From: Phycisphaerales bacterium
GTDB taxonomy: Bacteria > Planctomycetota > Phycisphaerae > WQYP01
Direction: 5' to 3'
NCBI GenBank assembly: GCA_009781185.1
Contig: WQYP01000004.1
Coordinates: 232-64,231 of the forward strand
DNA: 64,000 nt
Positions 7,972-21,943 of the stretch are shown here, one piece after another. Below the pieces are notes generated by a model. The model searched no databases. It saw only the letters and a list, made by a program, of their open reading frames with translations, and was not told where the DNA came from. The translations under genes and the position numbers were made by a program. Every line of letters begins with the position of its first letter. Position 1 is the first letter of the stretch.

Positions 7972-8189
7972 GTCGCGCGACCGCTCCGAAAAGCGGTCGC
8001 GGGCATCCAAAATCGGGTCGGCTCGCTTGGTATTGAAACTACTCGGGACCGGTTCTTTGCGGAGGTGGCTTCTGATCCTCAAGAAGCCAATGATCAGCCG
8101 GTGGAGGGGTGGGGGTCGTGAGGCGATTGGCGGGATCGTTTTTTATAGCGTTTGACGGCATTCTGGAGCTACTCCAAAATGTCGGGCTA

Positions 8190-9340
8190 TTGTCGTTACA
8201 GCACTTACAAACTTTTATTTTTGCGAACGGATTTTGATGAAAAAGTTTTTTCTGACGTTTTTTGTATTGATTATTAATGCTCTGGCGGTGCGTCGTGATC
8301 TCCACGTCCGCTTCCTCAAACTCCAACTCCAAATTCTCTGGTCGAGGTTGCATGGCAACAGGATCATCCTCACTCCGGAGGAGCGGAAGCAAATGTTGAT
8401 GTTGGGAGCGGAGCTGGAACATGAGGTCAATGATAGTCTGATGATTGTGCATTGCAAGACTTACAAAAAATGGTTGCGCGATGAAAGAGATGGGAAGCAA
8501 CCCAAGAAGGTTGGGCGACCCAAGCTGCTTCCGGAATTGGTCGAGTTGATTATTTGGTTGGCGAAGGAGAATCTTGGGTGGGGTGTCAAACGCATCGCGG
8601 GCGAACTCTGGAAACTCGGTGAGAGGATCGGTGACAGTACCATTCGGCGGGTGCTCCGGCGAGAAGGTTTATATCCTGATCGCAATCGTTCGGCTCGTCG
8701 ACAGGCTGATTCGACATGGCAGAATTTCATCAAGCTCCACATGAATGTCATCGTCGCGACGGACTTTTTATGCAAGACTGTTGTGACGCCTTTTGGCTTA
8801 AAAACCGCGTTTTTGATCATGTTTATTCACTTGGAAAGTCGGAAGGTTTTCATCTCTCCGGCGACCTACGCACCCGGTGAACAGTGGGTTTGTCAGCAGG
8901 CGAGGAACGTTGCTTTGTGGCTCGGTGAGAACGGCGTGAAACAGCGATTTATTATGCACGACCGCGACACAAAATACACGGCCAGCTTCGATGAAATCTT
9001 CAAAGCTGCTGGCGTGGAGATCGTTAAAACGCCCGTTGCTGCACCTAACGCGAATGCTTTTGCTGAAAGCTGGATCGGGAAAATTAAATTTGAAGCCCTC
9101 GATCATTTTCTATGCTTCGGCCTCAAGCACCTCGATCATATTGCTCAAAGTTACGCGAATTTTCATAATGAACTCAGGCCACATCAATCCAAGAATAACG
9201 AGCCTTTACGGTTCGAAAATCAGCCGCCGCCGGAGCGAACGCCGAATCGTGGAACTATAGAATGTCAGCGAATCCTGGGCGGGCTTTTGAAGCACTACCA
9301 CAGGAAAGCTACATAAAAAACCACGCTCGCGAGCGTCCGA
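8190..9340 (+). mobile_element. IS-like element around the transposase; ends not defined (no clear terminal inverted repeats found)
   Basis: Single transposase ORF. A 12-bp palindrome CGCTCGCGAGCG at 9324-9335 follows the stop. Confidence 0.35.
8234..9316 (+). CDS. DDE transposase, rve/integrase-core superfamily (IS481/IS3-like) with N-terminal HTH
   Basis: N-terminal HTH region (GRPKLLPELVELIIWLAKENLGWGVKRIAGELWKLG) and DDE integrase core (FIMHDRDTKYTASF ... AAPNANAFAESW). True start uncertain. Confidence 0.7.
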   Translation: MMKKFFLTFFVLIINALAVRRDLHVRFLKLQLQILWSRLHGNRIILTPEERKQMLMLGAELEHEVNDSLMIVHCKTYKKWLRDERDGKQPKKVGRPKLLPELVELIIWLAKENLGWGVKRIAGELWKLGERIGDSTIRRVLRREGLYPDRNRSARRQADSTWQNFIKLHMNVIVATDFLCKTVVTPFGLKTAFLIMFIHLESRKVFISPATYAPGEQWVCQQARNVALWLGENGVKQRFIMHDRDTKYTASFDEIFKAAGVEIVKTPVAAPNANAFAESWIGKIKFEALDHFLCFGLKHLDHIAQSYANFHNELRPHQSKNNEPLRFENQPPPERTPNRGTIECQRILGGLLKHYHRKAT

Positions 9341-9346
9341 TACAGA

Positions 9347-9540
9347 ATGAGATAGTATTTTTCGGTTTACTATCTCATTGCTATCTCTTTACTATCTCAA
9401 TGAGATAGTAAATCGAGTTATTGGTCGTTTTCCCGAGTGAAAGTCCCATTTTACTATCTCATTTACTAGCTTATTTTGCATAGTTTACTATCTCATTTGC
9501 ATTTTCGGACGATTTTACTATCTCATTACTATGTCATTTT
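9347..9540. repeat. AT-rich array of TACTATCTCAT motifs (5 direct and 2 inverted copies) immediately 3' of response-regulator gene 9546..10655
   Basis: Motif copies at ~9347 (inverted), 9368, 9392, 9402 (inverted), 9452, 9485 and 9517. Confidence 0.6.
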
Positions 9541-9545
9541 GAAAT

Positions 9546-10655
9546 CTAAATATCTTTACTCATTCGCCAGTAGCCGGTTTTAGCGGGGCCGACGAACTCG
9601 ATCTTTCCCTGGTTTTTTAGGACTTCGATTTCACGCCTTGCGGTGGTGAAGGAGCAGTCGAGTTTGTCCTGGATACCTGATACTCGTAATCGTTCGCCGG
9701 TGGAAAGCATCGCCAGAATTTGTGACTGGCGTTGGATACTCGGATCGTCGGAGACGGTTTCCTCCATCTTCCTCACGCCGCCATGCCGGACTTCCGGAAT
9801 TGGCGGCGGGTTTTTGAGCGTGATCTTTGCGTTGAGTCGATAGCCAGCATCGGCGGTTTCGATCACATCGTCGCGACCGACTTTCAGGCCCAGTTCCCGT
9901 CCGAGCGATTCGGTCGCGTTCCGGCGAAAGTCTCGTATACTGCCCGCGATGCTGCCTTGCCCGCCGTTGCCGCTGACCAACGTGATAAGTGCGTTGCTGG
10001 GCCAGGATTTGTAGCTGCCGTCGGATCGCCGTTGCGTCAATGCTTGTAGAATTGTCCACATCTGAGAGGATTTGCTGCGGGTGAGAATCGACACGCCGCA
10101 GAGTTCTACGTGGTCGGGATAGAACTCCAGTTCGCCGCCAGTGAAGGGTTGGTGGGGGTGGTTGATGGCGGTGCTGGGATGAGGTGGGCTGGTGGATGCG
10201 GGAGGAGCGAAGGATACGGGGGTGGCGGGAGGATGTACGTATTTAGCGATGACTTCGAGGATGGCTCGGTCGAGTACGCCGTCATCGAAAGGTTTGTTGA
10301 CGAAGTCCGCTACGCCTTTTTTCAAGAGGTGTCTGGCCAACTCCGGACTATCGGTGCCGTGAGCGGTCATCACGATGATCGGCGTTTTGCGCATATGTAT
10401 TGAAGCCAAGATTTGGTCGATCAGGTTGTCGCCATTCTGGATGCGAGAAAGGCCACAGCCTTGACGAGTCGGAATCGCCAATTCCATCAGGACGTAATCG
10501 TACCAGCCTGCTTTGATTTTCTGGCGGGCGGCTTCCTGGTCGCCAACGAGATCGTACTCGTGGTCCAGGGAATTGAGAATGTTTTTGACTTCCTCCGCAA
10601 TCATCGGATCGTCTTCTATAACCAGGGCTTTGGGAACAGGTGTTTTGTGAGTCAT
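9546..10655 (-). CDS. response regulator: receiver domain + OmpR-like winged helix + C-terminal HTH
   Basis: REC domain (LVIEDDPMIAEEV ... YDYVLMELAIP ... PIIVMTAHG), central wH (ELCGVSILTRS ... DAGYRL) and C-terminal HTH (ILAMLSTGERLRVSGIQDKLDCSFTTARREIEVLKNQGKI). Confidence 0.75.
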   Translation of the reverse strand: MTHKTPVPKALVIEDDPMIAEEVKNILNSLDHEYDLVGDQEAARQKIKAGWYDYVLMELAIPTRQGCGLSRIQNGDNLIDQILASIHMRKTPIIVMTAHGTDSPELARHLLKKGVADFVNKPFDDGVLDRAILEVIAKYVHPPATPVSFAPPASTSPPHPSTAINHPHQPFTGGELEFYPDHVELCGVSILTRSKSSQMWTILQALTQRRSDGSYKSWPSNALITLVSGNGGQGSIAGSIRDFRRNATESLGRELGLKVGRDDVIETADAGYRLNAKITLKNPPPIPEVRHGGVRKMEETVSDDPSIQRQSQILAMLSTGERLRVSGIQDKLDCSFTTARREIEVLKNQGKIEFVGPAKTGYWRMSKDI

Positions 10656-11109
10656 GCTTCACTCTCCATTTCTGCGCCAGCGGCAGCAATGTCGCTGCGC
10701 TCGGCGACGCCATTGATGCCCCAATCGCTTTGGGCGAAACATTTCGCCCGCGATGGGTAAATCTGTGGAGGACGCCGCCAGCAATAGAGATTAAAAGGTG
10801 TCGATTGTTCTATGTTTGTGCGCACGGAGGGCTGGTACTGAAAGAGCACGTTTTCCGTGTGGGCACAACATTTTTCACGGTGAAACTGGTCAACCTCACC
10901 AGCGTTCAGCGTGTCCTTCTCTGCGACAATATGACGCTTTTTCTTTCGGTTAGACTCATAATAAACTTAATAGGAGCGTCAAATTTTGTTGTCGTTTTCG
11001 CTTCCCCTCAGTCAAGCGGATAGGGCACGGCCACTGTTCTTTCGTCTCGGACTGGACTTTTTTCGCCTGGACGCGCATAATCCTTCAAATGTTTTGAAGG
11101 ATTTTGCGT

Positions 11110-11718
11110 ATGCGGTATCGTGACACTCAACAGTCTCTCAAAGCGCTCTACAGCGTGGCGGCTACGCAGGGGGGATACTTTACCGCTAAACAAGCGGCTG
11201 AGGCGGGATACGACTATTCGCATCTGGTGTATCACCTCCAGGCGAGGAATTTTGAGCGAGCCGCACATGGGCTTTATCGCCTGCCCACCATTCCGCTTGC
11301 GGAGCATGATGATCTGATTCGGCTATCGCTGTGGAGCAGGGGACAAGACGATGCGCCCCAAGGCATAGTCTCCCATGCCAGTGCGATGTTTCTTCATCAA
11401 CTGAGCGATGTGCTGCCGACCAAGGTGCATCTCACCGTTCCGCCGGGGTTTCGTAAAGTTGCGCCGCGGGGATGTGTGCTGCACAAATCTCGACTGACTA
11501 CCGCTGAGACGGAAGCTCATGAAGGTTTCGCGGTGACTAAGCCGCTACGGACTTTGCTGGATGTAGCCCGCAATTCGAGCATCACCGACGAGCAGCTTGA
11601 GCGAGCCGTCCATGACGCGATCAGCCGTGGGCTGGTGCGTGAATCTGTTCTGAAGCGGGAGCTGGGCAAGGTGATGTCGCCGACACGCCGTGATTGTTTC
11701 GCCTCTCTGGTCGGATAA
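11110..11718 (+). CDS. abiEi: type IV toxin-antitoxin / abortive-infection AbiEi-family antitoxin-like protein
   Basis: N-terminal wH plus C-terminal AbiEi-like domain architecture. Directly upstream of an AbiEii-like nucleotidyltransferase with a 6-bp gap. ATG at 11110 (ORF from 11104). Confidence 0.6.
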   Translation: MRYRDTQQSLKALYSVAATQGGYFTAKQAAEAGYDYSHLVYHLQARNFERAAHGLYRLPTIPLAEHDDLIRLSLWSRGQDDAPQGIVSHASAMFLHQLSDVLPTKVHLTVPPGFRKVAPRGCVLHKSRLTTAETEAHEGFAVTKPLRTLLDVARNSSITDEQLERAVHDAISRGLVRESVLKRELGKVMSPTRRDCFASLVG

Positions 11719-11724
11719 AAACAC

Positions 11725-12585
11725 ATGATTAAATCTTTTGCATCACCAGCAGCATTTAAAACTTCTTTGGAAGCACGTATCAGAACCATCGCCGGGCAGC
11801 GCGATGTACCCATCAACACACTACGACTGAAGCTGGTGATCGAACGGCTGTTGGCTCGTCTCTTCTCGCAGAAGAATCCGCCGTGGGTACTCAAGGGTGG
11901 TTATGCGATGGAGTTGAGATACCGACCTCGGGCTCGGACCACGCGCGATATTGATCTGACATACGACGCATCTGGCTCAATGGAATTACAGGCTCGCATT
12001 CGATACGTGCGTGAACAGCTCCAAGCAGCAGCGGACATTGATCTCAGCGACTATCTGGCCTTCCGCATCGAAGAGGCACAAACCGAGTTGGCCGGCGCAC
12101 CGCTTGGTGGTGCTCGGTTTCCCTGCGAGGCATTTCTTGCAGGGAAAACGTATGGCCGATTCCACATCGACGTGGGATTCGGCGACGATGTCGGCACTGC
12201 GACTGAAATGTTGTCGGGGGATGATCTACTGGCGTTTGCTGGCATTCCGCCTGCTCAGGCACTGGCGATTTCCAAGCCGCAGCAATTCGCCGAAAAACTC
12301 CACGCCTACACCCGCCCGTGGGATGACCGGATCAACATGCGGACAAAAGACCTTGTGGATTTGGTGCTGTTGATCGAAACCGCAAGCGTTGAACCAGCGG
12401 ACGTGAACGCCGCCGTCCACACGACTTTTGCGAAGCGGGATACTCACCCGATCCCGGTCGAACTTCCCGATCCGCCCGCCCGCTGGTCGGACGAATTCAC
12501 GGCACTGGCCGCCGAAGCACACCTGCAAGCCACAACGTTGTCGGCAGCCATTGGCGTCCTTCGCGTTTTTTGGCAACGTGTGTAA
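11725..12585 (+). CDS. abiEii: nucleotidyltransferase AbiEii/AbiGii toxin family protein
   Basis: VLKGGYAMELRY..RARTTRDIDL motif and overall length typical of AbiEii. Paired with the AbiEi-like gene. Confidence 0.65.
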   Translation: MIKSFASPAAFKTSLEARIRTIAGQRDVPINTLRLKLVIERLLARLFSQKNPPWVLKGGYAMELRYRPRARTTRDIDLTYDASGSMELQARIRYVREQLQAAADIDLSDYLAFRIEEAQTELAGAPLGGARFPCEAFLAGKTYGRFHIDVGFGDDVGTATEMLSGDDLLAFAGIPPAQALAISKPQQFAEKLHAYTRPWDDRINMRTKDLVDLVLLIETASVEPADVNAAVHTTFAKRDTHPIPVELPDPPARWSDEFTALAAEAHLQATTLSAAIGVLRVFWQRV

Positions 12586-12764
12586 CCACCGTGTGATTTG
12601 AGACCTGACCGGTAGATTTAGATAGCGTGGCTACCATCCGACGCTACGCTCCAGCTCCCTTAAGCGTTGAATGTGTTATACCTAATTGCGAACGAATCGG
12701 TCGAAGCTCGCCAAGTCACATTTCCTGAGAGGGTGTTCTCGCTTGGGAAATATTGCAACTAATT

Positions 12765-12800
12765 GACTTGACAGCAGTTATGGCTAATATAAGTTTGACA
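12765..12800 (+). promoter_or_regulatory. candidate sigma70-like promoter (TTGACT-16nt-TAATAT) in a ~680-bp ORF-poor spacer
   Basis: Read by eye. No downstream CDS on this strand. Confidence 0.2.
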
Positions 12801-13147
12801 TCCACCGCGTTGTCAGCGTGTTGTCAGAAGAGAGCGTTACTACGCCCCGGTGCGGGCATTTCATCCACCATGGTAAATCGGGGCGAGGGGCGAGCGGTTG
12901 AACCAAACCCCGAAAAAATCACTGAGTGCGCGGATGTGATTTTGAAATTCAGGCGATCACAACTTGAGTCTATCAAACGAGTTACGCGAAGTAGCCAATC
13001 GCTCTGCCAGATCGTCGTCGGCGCGGCGGCGTGATTATCGGGTGTCTTGTTGGTCGGTGGAAGGGGACCGATAAGTGTTTTTGGGGGCGTTTTTTGGGGG
13101 CGATTCTACTCTATATTTTAATCATCTTGATGTTTCATCAAGCCGAT

Positions 13148-13253
13148 TCGTGTCCCTGGGGGACACGCAAAATGTCCCCCCATGTCCCTGGGGGACATCA
13201 AAAATGTCCCTGCGTGTCCCTGGGGGACACGAAAAATGTCCCCCAGGGACACA
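13148..13253. repeat. tandem ~31-bp units (3.3 copies) each containing the palindrome GTCCC-TGG-GGGAC plus half-site AAAATGTCCCC; immediately 3' of response-regulator gene 13267..14364
   Basis: GTGTCCCTGGGGGACACGCAAAATGTCCCCCA repeated. Read directly. Confidence 0.6.
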
Positions 13254-13266
13254 TATACGCAAACTT

Positions 13267-14364
13267 TTATGCGTTCTTCGGTTTGGCGATGCGGTAATGG
13301 CCGGGGTGGGGTAAGTATATGTATTCAATCAGGCCCTGTTCTCGCAGTTCGCCAATGTCGCGTTGGGCGGTTTTGTCGGAGCATTTGAAGCGGGCTTCAA
13401 CGTCGCTGCGGCGTATCTTGGTCCCGCTGCGAAGTTCAGCAAGTATCCACTGTTGTCGAGCTGTGAGTTCGTTATTCTCATCGACGAGGGGTGGTGCTTC
13501 GGCGAGTGGCGATGCTGCTGTTGTTGGCGGCGTGAAGAGAGTTGGGCTGTTGATTTCCGTCGGTGGTAAATTTTGTCGAAGGGTGATGTGCGGATGGAGA
13601 CGATAGCCACGGTCGCGGCTCATGATGACATCGTGCATTCCGCAGGTCAGGTTCTGTTCCTGTTGTAGAAGGTTGATGATTCGTTCGCGGAGGCAACGAA
13701 TGCACTGGATCACAGAATTCTCGCCGACTCTTCGCCCCAAGTGCTCGGCCAGACGACGGCAACTGAAAGGTTTGAATCGGCCTTGGGTGTCTTGTTGCGC
13801 CAGCGTGGCGAGTATCTCCCAAGCGTAGCCGCGTCCACTGCGTTCCAGAATCGTGACGCCGCAGAGTTCTATGTGATTTTGAAAGATCGCGAGTTCTCCG
13901 CCAGCGAACGGCTGGAGGATGCCAGTAGGTTTGGCAGCGTTGCTGGCTTGGATGAGTATCGGTGCCAAGGCGGACTTGATGACCTCGTCGAGGGTTCGAC
14001 CGATTTTGGGGAAAGGCTTTTTTATATAGTTTGTCGCGCCCTTTCGCATCACGTTCACGGCCAACTCCGGCTCGTCGGTGTCGTGGTCAGCTATCACAAT
14101 AACCGGCGTGTGGCGCATGTGCGTGGAGGCGCGAATTTGCTCCAACAGGTTGATGCCGTTCTGAGAGCGAGGAAACTCGCAGTCCTGTCGAATCGGAATC
14201 TCCAATGCCAACAGGACGTAATCATACCCGCCCGCCTCAATTCGTTGGCGGGCGATTTCCTGGTCACCGGCGAGATCGTAGCCGTGGTCCAGGGACGTGA
14301 GAATGTTGGCGACTTCTTTCGCGCTGGATTGATCGTTTTCGATGACCAGAGCTTTGTGACTCAT
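13267..14364 (-). CDS. response regulator paralog: receiver + OmpR-like wH + C-terminal HTH
   Basis: Same three-domain layout as 9546..10655 (LVIENDQSSAKEV ... YDYVLLALEIP; ELCGVTILERS ... DRGYRL; C-terminal HTH ILAELRSGTKIRRSDVEARFKCSDKTAQRDIGELREQGLI). Confidence 0.75.
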   Translation of the reverse strand: MSHKALVIENDQSSAKEVANILTSLDHGYDLAGDQEIARQRIEAGGYDYVLLALEIPIRQDCEFPRSQNGINLLEQIRASTHMRHTPVIVIADHDTDEPELAVNVMRKGATNYIKKPFPKIGRTLDEVIKSALAPILIQASNAAKPTGILQPFAGGELAIFQNHIELCGVTILERSGRGYAWEILATLAQQDTQGRFKPFSCRRLAEHLGRRVGENSVIQCIRCLRERIINLLQQEQNLTCGMHDVIMSRDRGYRLHPHITLRQNLPPTEINSPTLFTPPTTAASPLAEAPPLVDENNELTARQQWILAELRSGTKIRRSDVEARFKCSDKTAQRDIGELREQGLIEYIYLPHPGHYRIAKPKNA

Positions 14365-17790: not shown

Positions 17791-17809
17791 TTTGATAAGG
17801 AGAACCGCT

Positions 17810-18478
17810 ATGTTTCAGAAACTGAAGACGTGGATAATGGCAATGGGAGTAATAGGGGTTGTCTTGTGTACAACGACTCGCCTCTCTTTTGCCGCCGATG
17901 CAAGCACGCCCATTTTTACTCAAGGATGGTATAATTGCAGTGAAGAAGGTCCAGATGCAATGACGGCAACCGCATCGTCACCAATTGAAGCGAAAGGAGG
18001 ATTCGGAATACCGGATGATCCGGATGATACCATTCTCATTGATGGCATCGGTGGCACCACAGTGTATTTCTCGGGTCGTTCTGCTGAAAATGGTTGTTAT
18101 TATCTGACTTGGGGCATCTTTCTTGGAGGCGGAAGTGAGGTCGGCAGTGATGGCAAAAATGAATGGGAGGCGTATTTTTCAAATGAAGAGTGCGCATATT
18201 TTGTAATATATATTAACAGCCCAACAACAATTGAAGACGACATCTTTTATTGTAATCCTAGTCAAGCTCCATTACCATCTACCATCACCGTCGAATTACA
18301 TAATTATACAGGTGACGAATCAATCCAGTTTATGCTATCCGTATCAGGTGATGGGGAAGTGCATTTTATCGATAGTCCAAGTCAATCCATTTCAAATGGA
18401 GCGAGTGTGGACGTTCATGCTTCTGGAACTGATAGCGGGCCTGTGGGGAAAGTGACAATTACTGTAACGGCTTATTAA
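17810..18478 (+). CDS. hypothetical secreted protein (low-GC gene)
   Basis: ATG at 17810 with RBS AAGGAGAA and a signal peptide. Local GC is clearly lower than the flanks. Confidence 0.5.
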   Translation: MFQKLKTWIMAMGVIGVVLCTTTRLSFAADASTPIFTQGWYNCSEEGPDAMTATASSPIEAKGGFGIPDDPDDTILIDGIGGTTVYFSGRSAENGCYYLTWGIFLGGGSEVGSDGKNEWEAYFSNEECAYFVIYINSPTTIEDDIFYCNPSQAPLPSTITVELHNYTGDESIQFMLSVSGDGEVHFIDSPSQSISNGASVDVHASGTDSGPVGKVTITVTAY

Positions 18479-18516
18479 ACAACTGAAACAACTCCCTATA
18501 ATAAGGAACATCATCA

Positions 18517-19428
18517 ATGAAGTTAGAACGAAATATAAAAGTGTTCATGATCGCAATGATTTGTGTGTTGGGGATATTTAACATCGCGATTGCTGATAAT
18601 CCTCCTGCAAAACCAAAGCCTAAAACAACTAAGGGGGAAGTAGTACGCATGCTGCATGAAAGGGGCAGAGTTAATATTCTTCTCACCGAGGCAATCAAAG
18701 AAGAAGATATCAAAAAAATGATCAAAGCGGGCATAAACGCAAATCTAGCACTGACCGCCGAGAAAGATCTCGTTCAATTTGTAACATCTCAAGTAGATGC
18801 ATATTTAACAAGTCTTAAAGATAAAGATATCGCTTCATACAATCTCATTTCAAAATACAAGAATGAATTGATTGATGCATTGATCAAGAAAACGCAAGAC
18901 CTCATTAAAAAAGGGGACGAAGTGGTCACCGCTGGAGTTGACAAAGCCGTGGCTGAGACTGCTTCAACTATCAAGGCGGCAATCGATTTATCTGCAGCAA
19001 TGAATGGCCTGTCTTTCGATGTTATTAGCGCTTACAGATATAAAGAAAAGGAAAGGAACCCAGGCAGTCCTGGATGGGATAAGCCCACGGTATCAAATGG
19101 TAGCTTCGTTAATGCCTCTGGTTCGTTCAAGATCGGATTTCAAGTTTCAGCAGGAGTCTCTGCAATTGGCGAGGCGACTGTACCAATTCAGATTGAGATA
19201 AAAGTGGATGCGAAAGCTGTGCTAAAAAGCAAGTATGTGGAGATAGGAACGATGAACATTCCAGAAACGACGGCTACGGTTATACCTGCCGTCGATGTCT
19301 CTGTAGGCCTCTCTGTGGAAGTTAAGGCTGGGGTCACTGCTGGAGGTAGTAGAGAAAAGACCGAAACTTTTGAACTGCCTGAGATTAAAAAGGATTTTAA
19401 AGCTGATGGAAATCCCCAGAAGGATTAA
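18517..19428 (+). CDS. hypothetical secreted protein (low-GC gene)
   Basis: Signal peptide MKLERNIKVFMIAMICVLGIFNIAIA and lysine-rich sequence. AT-rich DNA. Confidence 0.5.
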   Translation: MKLERNIKVFMIAMICVLGIFNIAIADNPPAKPKPKTTKGEVVRMLHERGRVNILLTEAIKEEDIKKMIKAGINANLALTAEKDLVQFVTSQVDAYLTSLKDKDIASYNLISKYKNELIDALIKKTQDLIKKGDEVVTAGVDKAVAETASTIKAAIDLSAAMNGLSFDVISAYRYKEKERNPGSPGWDKPTVSNGSFVNASGSFKIGFQVSAGVSAIGEATVPIQIEIKVDAKAVLKSKYVEIGTMNIPETTATVIPAVDVSVGLSVEVKAGVTAGGSREKTETFELPEIKKDFKADGNPQKD

Positions 19429-19457
19429 ATATACTACAACTTTTACTGTGAGGCATT

Positions 19458-20069
19458 ATGCAACTAAAATTTCTTAAATCGTTTGGAATTACTCTTTCGG
19501 CAGCAATAATATTGTCAAGTATAGCAGTATTGGATATTCGAGGAGATGTATCGACTACTGATGTTGCGACTAATAAAGCATTGAAATCTATGGCTTTTAA
19601 TTTTTCTGTCAAAAAAGGGCAGTATTTTCTATGGGCATTCAGTACCACTGCTGAAAAAGTAATACGTCCTCTTGGAGCGGTTCACTGTTCAGAGGATTAT
19701 GAATTGGTTCTTACGGTATTTCCAACAGAGCAAAAACAAGACCAAACAGTCTGGCGACAAGAAATGAAGTTTCGGCAGGTTGGGAAGGATAATTGGGGTG
19801 GCATTCAAGTCCAAGACAGTATTGGAGAGAAACTTCAGATTGAGGATGCTCCAGCAATACTTGAAGATGTTTCAAAGATTGGGAGCCTTGCAGGTATTCA
19901 ACTGTGGCGAATTCCCTATGGGAAAGTGAATGGGGAAACCCGCTCTATCCTTCTGGCTATTGCAGATGATACGGATGTATTTGCGAAATTGTTTATGCTT
20001 CCCAAAACGCCTCAATATGAGAAGCATGATTGGAAAAAATCTTGGGCAGAATGGCCTAGGAGCAAATGA
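19458..20069 (+). CDS. hypothetical secreted protein (low-GC gene)
   Basis: Signal-peptide-like N-terminus. AT-rich DNA. Confidence 0.45.
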   Translation: MQLKFLKSFGITLSAAIILSSIAVLDIRGDVSTTDVATNKALKSMAFNFSVKKGQYFLWAFSTTAEKVIRPLGAVHCSEDYELVLTVFPTEQKQDQTVWRQEMKFRQVGKDNWGGIQVQDSIGEKLQIEDAPAILEDVSKIGSLAGIQLWRIPYGKVNGETRSILLAIADDTDVFAKLFMLPKTPQYEKHDWKKSWAEWPRSK

Positions 20070-20143
20070 CCAGAATATTTATTGTCGACTTGTTCTTGGC
20101 CAATGTTCCCTATTGTTTCAAACCGCTAATAAGGGCATAGGGT

Positions 20144-21943
20144 ATGCGTGCAATAGGTCAATTACATATTGGAATCGTTGTCGTTATCAGTTTGTGTAAT
20201 TTTTGCCGAGCTGATGGTGTTGTTGGAATTATTCTTGAAGACTTTTGGGGCAATAAGGTTGTCCGTAAGATTGCCGAGAGCCCTAAACTTGCTGATATTA
20301 AAACAATACCGGAACGAGACGAACGCGACTTGAGGCGATTCATAGAAGGTAATTGTTCTATCGTAACTCTGTCCACGTATCCTTCGGCGGACGAGAAAAA
20401 ATGGATATACGGTTTTCACGCCGACAAAATTAGTCAGACAGCCTACATGGTCGGTCAGGCCAAAGTGCTAGTCGTGACTAATATGAATAATCCACTCACT
20501 CGTATCGATTATGAGCAATTGCGGAAAATGCTCGGCAAAGCTGATGCAACCGCGACGCAATCTACTCTTAATGATCGTACTGTAACGGCCAACGTGTACG
20601 CCGAAGCCCCACGTTCACTCGCCATGTCGGTTGTCCGCTTCACCGCTATGCGAAAAATCATCGACAGCAACGAATGGAACTTCTTCCCCTTCGGTAATGT
20701 GTGGCAGCAATGCGCCAGTGGTGAGGACGTCATAGAGAAGGTCAAAGCCAATCGTGCCGGTATTGGATTTGTGCTTTTCAAGGACCGTCTGCCAACAGGT
20801 GTCAAAGTGTTGTCCGTAAGCAAGCGACCGGACGATCCAGCGATCAAGCCCAGCGATGCTCCGCTGATTCAAACTGATTATCCGTTGGCCCAGCCGTTGG
20901 TGCTTTATCTTCATCCCACCCAACCTGTAGCAGCCAAGCGGTTTTGCGAGTTCGCTGTAAGTCCGGAAGGTGCGGCCATCGCTGAGCAATTCAGTCTCAT
21001 CACGCCTTGGCGAGAAAATCAATACTACGGAGAGAAGCGTGTCGCTGAGATGAAGGCAGGCAAGGGGCCACGTATTTTTGTTCCGGGGGTGACAGGCGGG
21101 CGGGCGGTTTTGCAGGATGTGGCGGTAGATTTTGTTCGGGCGAAGGCACTCTTGCAAGTGACGTATCAACCCGGCGAGTCCGCCGCCGCCGTTGGCGGTT
21201 TTGTCAACGCCGGTAGTCCGCAGCGAGAATTGCTGTTGCTTGACGGGCGTCCGAATGAGCAGACGTTGCGGCAGTACGGCACGAAATGGAACGACCTTCA
21301 GCCTGTCGAATCGATGCCCGCAGCGGCTGCGGTGGCTGTCGTGGTGAACCCCGCCAATAAAATCGCGTCCCTGAGTATTGACCAGTTGCAATCGATCCTC
21401 ACCGGCAAGACCGGCGACTGGAAACTTCTCGGCTCCACCGCTCGTAGCGGCGACATTCACGTCTTCGGCCTCCCCGGCGACACGACCACCAGCAAGATTA
21501 TTTCCAAGGAACTCCTTCCCATCACGCAGGCTTCCAAACTGAAAACTCGCAAGGACATTGCCGAGGTGCTCAGTGCCGTTTCGCTTGATCCGCAGGCGAT
21601 TGGCTTCGTCGATCTGGCTGCGATTCCGGCAGGCCAAAACGTCAAAATCCTCCCCATCGGCCCGGCGATCAAGCCTGCCGACCCCACGCCGGCTAATATC
21701 AAGTCCGGCATGTATCCGCTGGCCCAGCGGATGTTCCTCTATGTGCATCCCAAGGCCAGCGATACCGCAAAGGATTTCGCCAAGTTCCTCACCTCCGGCG
21801 AATGCGATGAGACCTTCCGCAAGAACGGTTTGATTCCGTTGTCCGACCAGGCCATCGCTGGTATCGTCCTCCCCTCCAAGTCTACCACGCAGCCCGCAAC
21901 ACAACCCGCAGCATTGATCGACAAATCCCGCCCGCCGAAGTAA
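20144..21943 (+). CDS. secreted protein with two PstS-like (PBP-like_2) substrate-binding domains
   Basis: Signature LQSILTGKTGDWKLLG ... GMYPLAQRMFLYVHP, repeated twice within the protein. Confidence 0.6.
   Translation: MRAIGQLHIGIVVVISLCNFCRADGVVGIILEDFWGNKVVRKIAESPKLADIKTIPERDERDLRRFIEGNCSIVTLSTYPSADEKKWIYGFHADKISQTAYMVGQAKVLVVTNMNNPLTRIDYEQLRKMLGKADATATQSTLNDRTVTANVYAEAPRSLAMSVVRFTAMRKIIDSNEWNFFPFGNVWQQCASGEDVIEKVKANRAGIGFVLFKDRLPTGVKVLSVSKRPDDPAIKPSDAPLIQTDYPLAQPLVLYLHPTQPVAAKRFCEFAVSPEGAAIAEQFSLITPWRENQYYGEKRVAEMKAGKGPRIFVPGVTGGRAVLQDVAVDFVRAKALLQVTYQPGESAAAVGGFVNAGSPQRELLLLDGRPNEQTLRQYGTKWNDLQPVESMPAAAAVAVVVNPANKIASLSIDQLQSILTGKTGDWKLLGSTARSGDIHVFGLPGDTTTSKIISKELLPITQASKLKTRKDIAEVLSAVSLDPQAIGFVDLAAIPAGQNVKILPIGPAIKPADPTPANIKSGMYPLAQRMFLYVHPKASDTAKDFAKFLTSGECDETFRKNGLIPLSDQAIAGIVLPSKSTTQPATQPAALIDKSRPPK

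Follow-up and report, generated by a model that had tools for sequence, protein, structure and literature searches.

A planctomycete family of OmpR-type regulators with two DNA-binding domains and a cis-carried array of putative binding sites

Why should two related regulator genes, lying close together in one planctomycete genome, each be followed by its own dense cluster of short repeats? The question is raised by a stretch of 64,000 nt from a Phycisphaerales bacterium (assembly GCA_009781185.1, contig WQYP01000004.1, positions 232 to 64,231), here called the window, in which two response regulator genes, RR1 and RR2, flank a pair of abortive infection genes, AbiEi and AbiEii. As judged from sequence and structural comparisons, the two products are best described as OmpR-type regulators with a second DNA-binding domain and a self-carried array of putative sites. 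Such an array is a frequent, but not universal, feature of the family to which they belong, and its anatomy, its conservation, the concerted change of its units and its linkage to the regulator gene are established by the comparisons given below.

The two regulators and the repeats that follow them

The argument concerns the following features of the window:

9546..10655, minus strand: RR1, 369 aa, with a receiver, an OmpR/PhoB-type winged helix and a C-terminal winged helix-turn-helix (HTH)
9345..9539: array 1, ten copies of AATGAGATAGTAAA (as read on the RR1 strand), eight one way and two inverted
9323..9336, minus strand: intrinsic-terminator-like hairpin and T-run, on the RR1 strand, just beyond array 1
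13267..14364, minus strand: RR2, 365 aa, a paralog of RR1 with the same three domains
13149..13252: array 2, three 32-bp units and one further palindrome

RR1 and RR2 are 40% identical from end to end (E=1e-86), and this identity, together with their common domain order, bears out an earlier, preliminary description of the sequence in which they were taken for paralogs. Pfam places Response_reg at the N-terminus of both (E=5e-16 for RR1 and 2e-11 for RR2) and HTH_11/HTH_DeoR at the C-terminus, and finds no match for the middle part of either protein, the Trans_reg_C model included. The receiver parts match the CheY and PhoB receivers in a profile search of the PDB. The AlphaFold2 model of RR1, with a mean predicted local distance difference test score of 87.5, has three confident domains and two disordered linkers: a receiver (residues 1-140), a domain made of a β-sheet, three helices and a wing (169-282), and a winged HTH (305-365). 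Foldseek comparison of this model with the PDB gave as top matches the full-length OmpR-family proteins VanR, MtrA, CosR, RpaA and KdpE, over about 280 aligned columns, and residues 9-285 of RR1 align by tblastn to ordinary OmpR-type regulators. The Pfam assignments for the two ends, the model and its structural matches, and the tblastn alignment covering the middle domain all agree on the proposed layout of receiver, winged helix and additional HTH.

Both arrays lie directly 3′ of the stop codons, as had been noticed, and in both cases the intergenic region separates convergent genes. Array 1 begins about 9 nt past the stop codon of RR1. With at most one mismatch, TACTATCTCAT occurs eight times within 9347-9537 (six copies on the plus strand and two on the minus strand) against a chance expectation of 0.26, and a position weight matrix scan adds two degenerate copies. 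The array had been counted as five direct and two inverted repeats; its existence stands, and the count is raised to eight and two. The start-to-start spacings are 11, 30, 34, 52, 10, 11, 11 and 21 bp, most of them near multiples of a helical turn, and a contiguous block of 3 x 11 bp occupies 9368-9400. Elsewhere in the window there is a single weak match to TACTATCTCAT. Since the terminator-like hairpin follows array 1, this array would lie within the 3′ untranslated region (UTR) of RR1.

Array 2 begins about 14 nt past the stop codon of RR2. Its three units span 13149-13244, and a fourth palindrome, inverted, ends at 13252; each unit consists of a 17-bp palindrome, GTGTCCC-TGG-GGGACAC, and an extra TGTCCC half-site. 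The sequence GTCCCTGGGGGAC is present in four copies, with 0.10 expected, and the motif has no copy elsewhere in the 64-kb window. The array had been described as 3.3 tandem palindromic units of 31 bp, of which the palindromic array is retained and the unit length corrected to 32 bp. As RNA, array 2 folds with -72.7 kcal/mol (z = -6.6), and one of its palindromes scores as a terminator.

The arrays in the regulator family

A search of genome contigs, together with nine exact-protein look-ups, yielded 33 family loci with full or nearly full genes, designated here by L and a number. The family amounts to about 505 clusters at 50% identity (E<=1e-30) and is confined to Planctomycetota, where it occurs in Phycisphaerae, Planctomycetia and Brocadiia. 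The same combination of a regulator gene and a 3′ array exists in other genomes, among close relatives of each paralog. Those of RR1 (L085, L088, L086/L087 and L165) have arrays beginning at the stop codon or immediately behind it and built from units of 11-12 bp, TGA-N4-GTAA, with a lineage-specific centre; the units are mostly direct and often abut at 11 bp, and the first unit of L085 and of L086 begins with the TGA of the stop codon. The RR1-type arrays compare as follows:

Window RR1: unit centre GATA, 10 copies
L085: unit centre TACC or TACT, 8 copies
L088: unit centre TCTT or TCCT, the contig ending inside the array
L086 / L087: unit centre CCCT, CCCA or CCGT, 12 copies
L165: TGGCACTGTAAA, 6 copies

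The relatives of RR2, namely L081/L082 (five copies), L166 (four) and L003 (four), have TGTCCC-NN-GGGACA palindromes at a spacing of 21-23 bp right after the stop codon. Different units therefore follow RR1 and RR2 and each kind recurs in close relatives, in keeping with the earlier view of the arrays as paralog-specific and linked to the gene. When 8-mers were counted in the 250 nt after the stop codon, allowing one mismatch, 9 of 32 family loci had at least six copies, compared with 17 of 589 control windows; eight copies were reached in one of the 589 controls. No copy of the array motifs was found elsewhere in the relatives' loci of ca. 10 kb, promoters included.

The most detailed comparison is that of RR1 with L085, which share a block of 75-82% DNA identity comprising a transposase-like gene of the rve type, the array, the regulator gene and 350 bp upstream of it. 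In this block one array aligns with the other position by position, common spacer AAATYGRGTTATYGGTCGTTTT included, and every unit core has changed in concert, reading TACTATCTCA in the window and TAC(G/A)GTATCA in L085. The preliminary description had also proposed a comparison of the recognition helices of the regulators: in both DNA-binding domains these helices are not the same in RR1 as in RR2, and they also differ from one class of array motif to another. The idea that the arrays are cognate sites thus receives comparative support from their cis linkage, from the concerted change of their units and from the arrays of relatives.

In other family members the array lies inside the regulator gene. 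L083, L084 and L167 have 9-10 GGGACA/TGTCCC half-sites within about 110 nt of DNA coding for the linker (peptide ...NVPGHVPGDAAPGTGTSQGQGHAGD...) that joins the OmpR-like domain to the C-terminal HTH, a density with Poisson p values of 1e-17 to 1e-37 relative to the rest of each locus. L165 has both forms, with eight TGGCACTGTAAA units in the linker-coding DNA and the six after the stop codon, and the identical order of the units in the two arrays indicates a duplication. Linker-coding repeats are also present in L005 (three TGAGCGAGTAA-type units, one of them the variant CGAGCGAGCAA), in L008 (ATGACCC/ATGTCCC) and in L004 (TGGCACCGGTGCCA palindromes). At the protein level, the repeated linker peptides DVP, NVP and PGD back-translate to (A)TGTCCC and GGGGAC, DPVN to GACCCTGTAAAC, GTVN to GGCACTGTAAAC and ERVN to GAGCGAGTAAA; among 166 parsed family proteins, such peptides occur at least twice in 87 and at least three times in 30. 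Because relatives carry arrays either within the gene or after its stop codon, the cis array is a trait of the family, of which the window has the external version. Absence of the array at orthologous regulators had been named as evidence against a regulator-and-site module; close relatives do have it, and more distant members usually lack a 3′ array, several of them carrying an internal one instead.

One regulator gene with repeats, L012 1904..3022, from a metagenome-assembled genome (MAG) of Planctomycetaceae, has an in-frame stop in the linker (…GAGAST*PRRDS…), after which repeated ATGACACCGATGACCCTGAT units still follow; it may be a pseudogene or reflect a sequencing error.

Operon partners and neighbouring genes

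The regulator gene closes a three-gene operon in most genomes, and at 26 of the 33 loci it is directly preceded by two genes whose stops overlap or abut the next gene. The first codes for an SMC/Rad50-like ABC ATPase of 620-684 aa (AAA_23, AAA_21 and SMC_N in Pfam) and the second, adjacent to the regulator, for a 386-aa protein with HEAT repeats and HATPase_c, in which Pfam recognises no HisKA. The pair is conserved upstream of regulators throughout Planctomycetota, for instance at L083 2555-5004, L084 1916-5004, L086 1776-4990 and L166 919-4004; the kinase-like gene of L081 is a truncated one, next to a transposase gene. The cassette is not recognised in PADLOC-DB 2.0, where the kinase-like protein has no match, the regulator matches only as receiver or HTH fragments and the ATPase obtains only generic ABC-ATPase matches (Ppl C-terminus, AriA, LmuB), with weak LmuB and JetC. 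The operon is often surrounded by defence genes, and the neighbours of the family loci include GmrSD, WYL regulators, Fic/HATPase_c_4, SLFN/AlbA_2 and AbiE genes. No family member was found on known plasmids or phages.

RR1 and RR2 belong, with L085, L088, L165 and L006, to the orphans that lack the usual partner genes, and neither has a kinase-like gene next to it, although one is present in 26 of the 33 relatives. Most family members have an Asp at the phospho-acceptor position, at the end of β3. This residue is Glu in RR1 (YVLMEL), L085, L088 and L165 and Ala in RR2 (YVLLAL). Since the Asp is replaced, and replaced only in orphans, RR1 and RR2 are probably phosphorylation-independent derivatives. 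A ratio of nonsynonymous to synonymous substitution rates (dN/dS) of 0.35 between RR1 and its relative in L085 indicates that the orphan is still under purifying selection.

The genes around the regulators are bounded by a tryptophanyl-tRNA synthetase gene on one side and a gene for a large tetratricopeptide repeat (TPR) protein on the other, between which lie the rve-type gene, RR1, AbiEi, AbiEii and RR2. The further features of this stretch are:

8234..9316, plus strand: rve-type (DDE) transposase-like gene (Pfam rve_3, HTH_32), convergent with RR1
10656..11004: region upstream of RR1, with 79% DNA identity to L085, the presumed RR1 promoter region
11104..12585, plus strand: AbiEi (11104..11718; Pfam AbiEi_4, E=2e-7) and AbiEii (11725..12585; Pfam AbiEii, E=4e-30)
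12870..13034, plus strand: 54-codon open reading frame (ORF), opposite RR2, overlapping the conserved element
12878..12904, minus strand: conserved element of about 27 nt, consensus GGTTCAAACGAAGGGCAGTCGCCCCGA, on the regulator strand downstream of the gene

The open reading frames and Pfam confirm that AbiEi and AbiEii, an antitoxin-regulator gene and a nucleotidyltransferase gene separated by 6 nt, are bracketed by the two regulators. A functional tie between them, suggested from this arrangement, was not supported. The AbiE pairs on the RR1 side and in L085 are only 27-29% identical, while the regulator, the array, the rve gene and the 350 bp upstream are conserved, and the homology with L085 upstream of RR1 stops short of the cassette; moreover, most family members have no AbiE genes and are placed instead behind the genes for the SMC-like ATPase and the histidine-kinase-like protein. 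Because non-orthologous AbiE pairs fill the slot, the link is incidental, and the pair is, on these alignments, better regarded as an exchangeable defence cassette than as a conserved partner of the regulators. In the window the slot comprises 11104..12585 and in L085 2891..4547, with AbiEii proteins of 286 and 343 aa, respectively; both pairs are divergent from the regulator and adjoin the conserved 350-bp region. The difference looks like a swap of defence cassettes at a fixed hotspot.

The DDE transposase reported to adjoin the island corresponds to the rve-type gene at 8234..9316. It is no chance neighbour of RR1, being syntenic with the regulator in L085 (L085 6221-7540; window 8010-9340), where the protein is 86% identical, and having a synonymous divergence (dS) of 0.64, similar to the 0.87 of the regulator. 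The dN/dS of the rve gene is 0.13, and the regulator is thus the faster-evolving of the two genes in the comparison of the window with L085. No terminal inverted repeats linking the two sides of the gene were detected, and the gene is perhaps no active insertion sequence (IS) but a copy that became fixed or domesticated. Farther along, the G+C content falls to 0.39-0.43 at 18000-20500 (ORFs 17792..20069), compared with about 0.55 in the flanks, perhaps marking a further acquired segment.

The far end of the regulator locus is marked by the conserved element GGTTCAAACGAAGGGCAGTCGCCCCGA, with a nearly invariant core. It is shared by the window and 12 family loci and is missing from all of about 100 unrelated loci (1.39 Mb). 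Its position in relatives is, for example, L004 7143-7169, L083 6186-6212, L008 3089-3115, L007 10686-10712 and L013 12480-12506. What lies between the regulator stop codon and the element varies: nothing in L004, L083/L084, L167 and L008, an array at RR2 in the window and in L081, L166, L003 and L165, and extra genes in L007, L013 and L023. In L007 (7276..10159, minus strand) the genes in this slot code for a protein that looks, by eye, cyclic-nucleotide-binding/TIR-like and for a 481-aa protein, and in L013 (6991..12134, plus strand) for a 1215-aa protein of TPR-like appearance, again by eye, and one of 478 aa; all are candidates for effectors of the cassette. In L005 (7112..9442) a unit of about 1152 bp, containing an ORF of about 380 aa and a variant of the conserved element, is tandemly duplicated directly downstream of the regulator, a duplication that could be real or an assembly artefact. 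About 120 nt beside the element are ca. 97% identical, by eye, between L081 and L166, whose regulator genes are 76% identical.

An Rfam search of the window region and nine loci returned nothing relevant and no match for the element, and a structured RNA was discarded for want of consensus base pairs, as was a tRNA or attachment site, there being no tRNAs in 20 loci. The 54-codon ORF that overlaps the element is flanked by a promoter-like site (12763-12790) and a terminator-like hairpin (13053-13080), and its peptide (...VEPNPEKITECADVIL...) resembles those of opposite-strand ORFs in L081, L003 and L004. It matched no Pfam model and no protein family, and could encode a small protein or be a mere imprint of the DNA element. 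Between its terminator-like hairpin and array 2, at 13078-13103, there is a tandem duplicate of TTTTTGGGGGCGT (two copies).

What the arrays may do

Strict cis linkage, concerted change of the units, persistence in orphans, unit geometry and class-specific differences in the helices together lead us to read each array as a cluster of sites for the adjacent regulator. The RR1-type units, of 11-12 bp, mostly in one direction and abutting at 11 bp, would fit head-to-tail binding of the OmpR/PhoB type, whereas the palindromes of 14-17 bp and 21-32-bp spacing of the RR2 type would suit symmetric dimers. Cooperative loading of many copies of the protein could then take place at the 3′ end of the regulator's own gene. 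The loaded array would act as a self-titrating sink that buffers free regulator, as a transcriptional roadblock if it is internal, or, if it is external, as an insulator separating convergent genes; since each chain has two DNA-binding domains, the protein might also bridge to a second DNA. No copy of the RR1 or RR2 motifs was found in promoters within reach, in the window and the loci, and the role is therefore likely to be local. We lean slightly towards this reading, in which the regulators would bind their own arrays and load on their own gene end as a sink or roadblock.

Several points weigh against it. Around two thirds of the sampled family loci have no detectable array after the stop codon, and only some of these have an obvious internal one. 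The lack of motif copies in reachable promoters leaves classical promoter regulation unexplained. Gene conversion or replication slippage could homogenise the units without any protein, the RR2 array would form very stable RNA hairpins, and the helix differences affect both DNA-binding domains, so that neither is singled out as the reader of the array.

A parallel to the RR2-type units is found in phages. When IMG/VR was scanned for pairs of TGTCCC-NN-GGGACA palindromes separated by 5-14 nt, 73 viral contigs with such pairs at 22-23-bp spacing were retrieved, against one for a scrambled control palindrome, and all ten tested ORFs that span the viral arrays code for phage replication proteins (phrog_22470, DUF1376), the array lying directly after the N-terminal DNA-binding domain. 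Annotated relatives are genes of the 'replication protein O' type from temperate Pseudomonas and Burkholderia phages. The variant with a 3-nt centre, a 32-36-bp period and often an extra GGGACA half-site, which is the architecture of array 2, was located in other replication-initiator genes (phrog_2447, 3926, 16167) in 8 of 10 tested cases. At least two unrelated families of phage initiators (phrog_22470/DUF1376 and phrog_2447/3926) therefore embed TGTCCC-N2/3-GGGACA iterons in their own genes (L168-L271), and in the 3-nt-centre class a direct GGGACA half-site often follows 4-6 nt downstream.

RR2-type arrays thus match phage origin iterons in half-site, symmetry and period, and the internal ones also in their position in the gene, since in lambda O with ori-lambda, and in the DUF1376 and phrog_2447 modules, a palindromic array likewise occupies linker-coding DNA behind a DNA-binding domain that the gene itself encodes. 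Common to both are the TGTCCC/GGGACA half-site, an extra half-site in some cases, and periods of 21-36 bp. Unlike the phage modules, the regulator has no helicase-loader domain, no AT-rich unwinding region was identified and no sequence homology of the proteins was detected (hhalign probability of 0.2-1.5% for the regulator and the two phage initiator N-domains, and no tblastn matches); the regulator has instead a receiver and a kinase-like partner, and the arrays of the window lie outside the gene. A phage counterpart of the RR1-type units was sought in viral scans and rejected, as these gave heterogeneous tandem or coding repeats with no common context. BLAST searches of the arrays against phage and plasmid records gave no match. 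The parallel may reflect convergence between winged-helix proteins or functional mimicry.

Should it be mimicry, the RR2-type array would copy the iterons of a foreign replicon and the regulator would block initiation, or transcription of the initiator gene, on incoming DNA; the chromosomal array could then be an autoregulatory decoy from which invading iterons titrate the regulator off its own gene, or the array could itself titrate a phage initiator. We consider this unlikely, in spite of the viral contigs and replication genes just described, the location of the L083, L084 and L167 arrays in linker-coding DNA as in genes of the lambda-O type, the defence-type neighbourhoods of the family, and a precedent in which a cloned ori-lambda iteron fragment excludes lambdoid phages (PMC3349717). 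Against it stand the lack of any detected homology to either initiator N-domain, the hosts of the annotated phages with these initiators, mostly Proteobacteria and in no recorded case Planctomycetota, the failure of the RR1-type motifs to find a coherent phage counterpart, the absence of array homologs in phage and plasmid records, and a 6-bp half-site short enough for convergence. In a wider form of the idea, to which we likewise attach a low and if anything slightly smaller probability, the whole family would be an iteron-targeting immunity or incompatibility module carrying decoy repeats of a foreign lambda-O-type replicon: incoming iterons would raise synthesis of the regulator and the origin of the invader would be silenced, DNA sensing and activation would fall to the SMC-like ATPase and the kinase, and an arms race would have left its trace in the concerted change that units and protein have undergone.

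The repeats could also act as RNA, as hairpins or terminators in the 3′ UTR of the type of repetitive extragenic palindromes (REP) and bacterial interspersed mosaic elements (BIME), which would stabilise or end the regulator transcript with no protein binding. The position of both arrays between convergent genes, the stable fold and terminator score of array 2 and the terminator after array 1, which implies that this array is transcribed, are in favour of this possibility. It is nevertheless quite improbable, because hairpin-capable palindromes are found in array 2 and not in array 1 or the other TGA-N4-GTAA arrays, which are mostly direct repeats, because the same motifs occur within coding DNA of relatives, and because the units change in concert with the protein lineage. 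Nor were the many dispersed copies typical of REP and BIME seen in the 64-kb window or the relatives' loci, and within that range the objection, raised at the outset, that the arrays might be dispersed REP or miniature inverted-repeat transposable elements fails for close relatives. We give just as little credence to a functionless expansion of slippage-prone, low-complexity linker DNA, sometimes duplicated past the stop codon: the linkers are indeed variable in length and of low complexity across the family, and the array after the L165 stop codon looks like a duplicate of the internal one, but variable non-repeated spacers and inverted copies are unlike the products of slippage, the window and L085 have kept one array architecture through a concerted change of the unit cores, non-coding arrays persist after the stop codon in orphans under purifying selection, and the same motif classes recur in distant members.

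A centromere-like site, loading the SMC-like ATPase or segregating a replicon, is very unlikely. The order of ATPase, DNA-binding protein and array does resemble that of type Ia partition loci such as sopABC, and the first operon gene is SMC-like (AAA_23, SMC_N; weak LmuB and JetC in PADLOC); however, the loci are on chromosomal MAG contigs, with no family member on known plasmids or phages, the orphans keep their arrays without the ATPase, the ATPase is not ParA-like, and signalling is suggested by the receiver domain and the kinase-like gene. It is harder still to believe that the arrays are transposase-binding end repeats, or the insertion target, of the neighbouring rve element. Although in both the window and L085 an rve gene directly adjoins the array and IS elements are near other family loci, arrays exist with no rve neighbour in L086, L165, L166 and L081, which largely refutes the idea, no second end or inverted partner was found, and the units vary together with the regulator, in contrast to an rve protein that is 86% conserved. 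Separately, we rejected a reading of the RR1-type units as mini-ORFs (ATG-N6-TAA, like the lambda bar minigenes): several units read ATG..TAA, but the contiguous units lack the ATG, inverted copies exist and the RR2-type units do not fit.

Among known systems, one close comparison is with ordinary OmpR/PhoB regulators. PhoB binds its pho boxes head to tail, as tandem 11-bp boxes, and RR1 and RR2 share with this group the receiver and the OmpR-fold winged helix and, in the case of the RR1 type, mostly direct units of 11-12 bp that are often contiguous at 11-bp spacing. They differ in the extra C-terminal winged HTH and in a middle domain not matched by Trans_reg_C; the sites of the family lie at or in the 3′ part of the own gene rather than in promoters, with 8-15 per array, and the copies in the window have neither a phosphorylatable Asp nor an adjacent kinase-like gene. 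HP1043 and ChxR are atypical orphan response regulators that lack the phospho-acceptor Asp. RR1, with its Glu and purifying selection, and RR2, with its Ala, resemble them, also in having no adjacent kinase gene, and differ in coming from a family with an Asp and a dedicated kinase-like partner, in their two DNA-binding domains and in the cis array.

With respect to gene order, in the P1 repA-incA and F repE-incC loci a rep gene is followed by a cluster of sites for its product, and these sites work through titration or handcuffing and not as a promoter. The likeness is that a gene for a DNA-binding protein is directly followed by a site cluster, putative as regards binding at the arrays described here; in contrast to incA and incC, these loci are chromosomal, show no evident replication function and belong to a family absent from known plasmids. 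The cassette also differs from type Ia partition (sopABC/parABS) in that its ATPase is SMC/ABC-like and its adaptor a response regulator, and the copies in the window have no ATPase gene. Detocs is a two-component module found inside defence clusters. Ambrosia is another (bioRxiv 10.1101/2025.09.30.679545). The family resembles both in combining a kinase-type ATPase with a receiver-winged HTH regulator among defence genes, and departs from them in its SMC-like ATPase and HEAT-kinase-like protein, in having no nuclease, methylase or PNP effector, and in the cis arrays, which are not described for those systems.

Few bacterial transcription factors have been studied as thoroughly as response regulators, and to our knowledge no regulator family has previously been described that routinely carries a dense, co-evolving array of presumed self-binding sites. 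If binding is true, the family would provide a natural set of concertedly changed protein-site pairs, useful for the rules of winged-helix recognition, as well as a new cis-architecture for control by self-titration or roadblock. It would also add to the defence-type neighbourhoods of Planctomycetota a conserved three-gene cassette of an SMC-like ATPase, a HEAT-kinase-like protein and a dual-DNA-binding regulator, and the array class that resembles phage iterons makes a mechanism of defence or incompatibility directed at origins directly testable.

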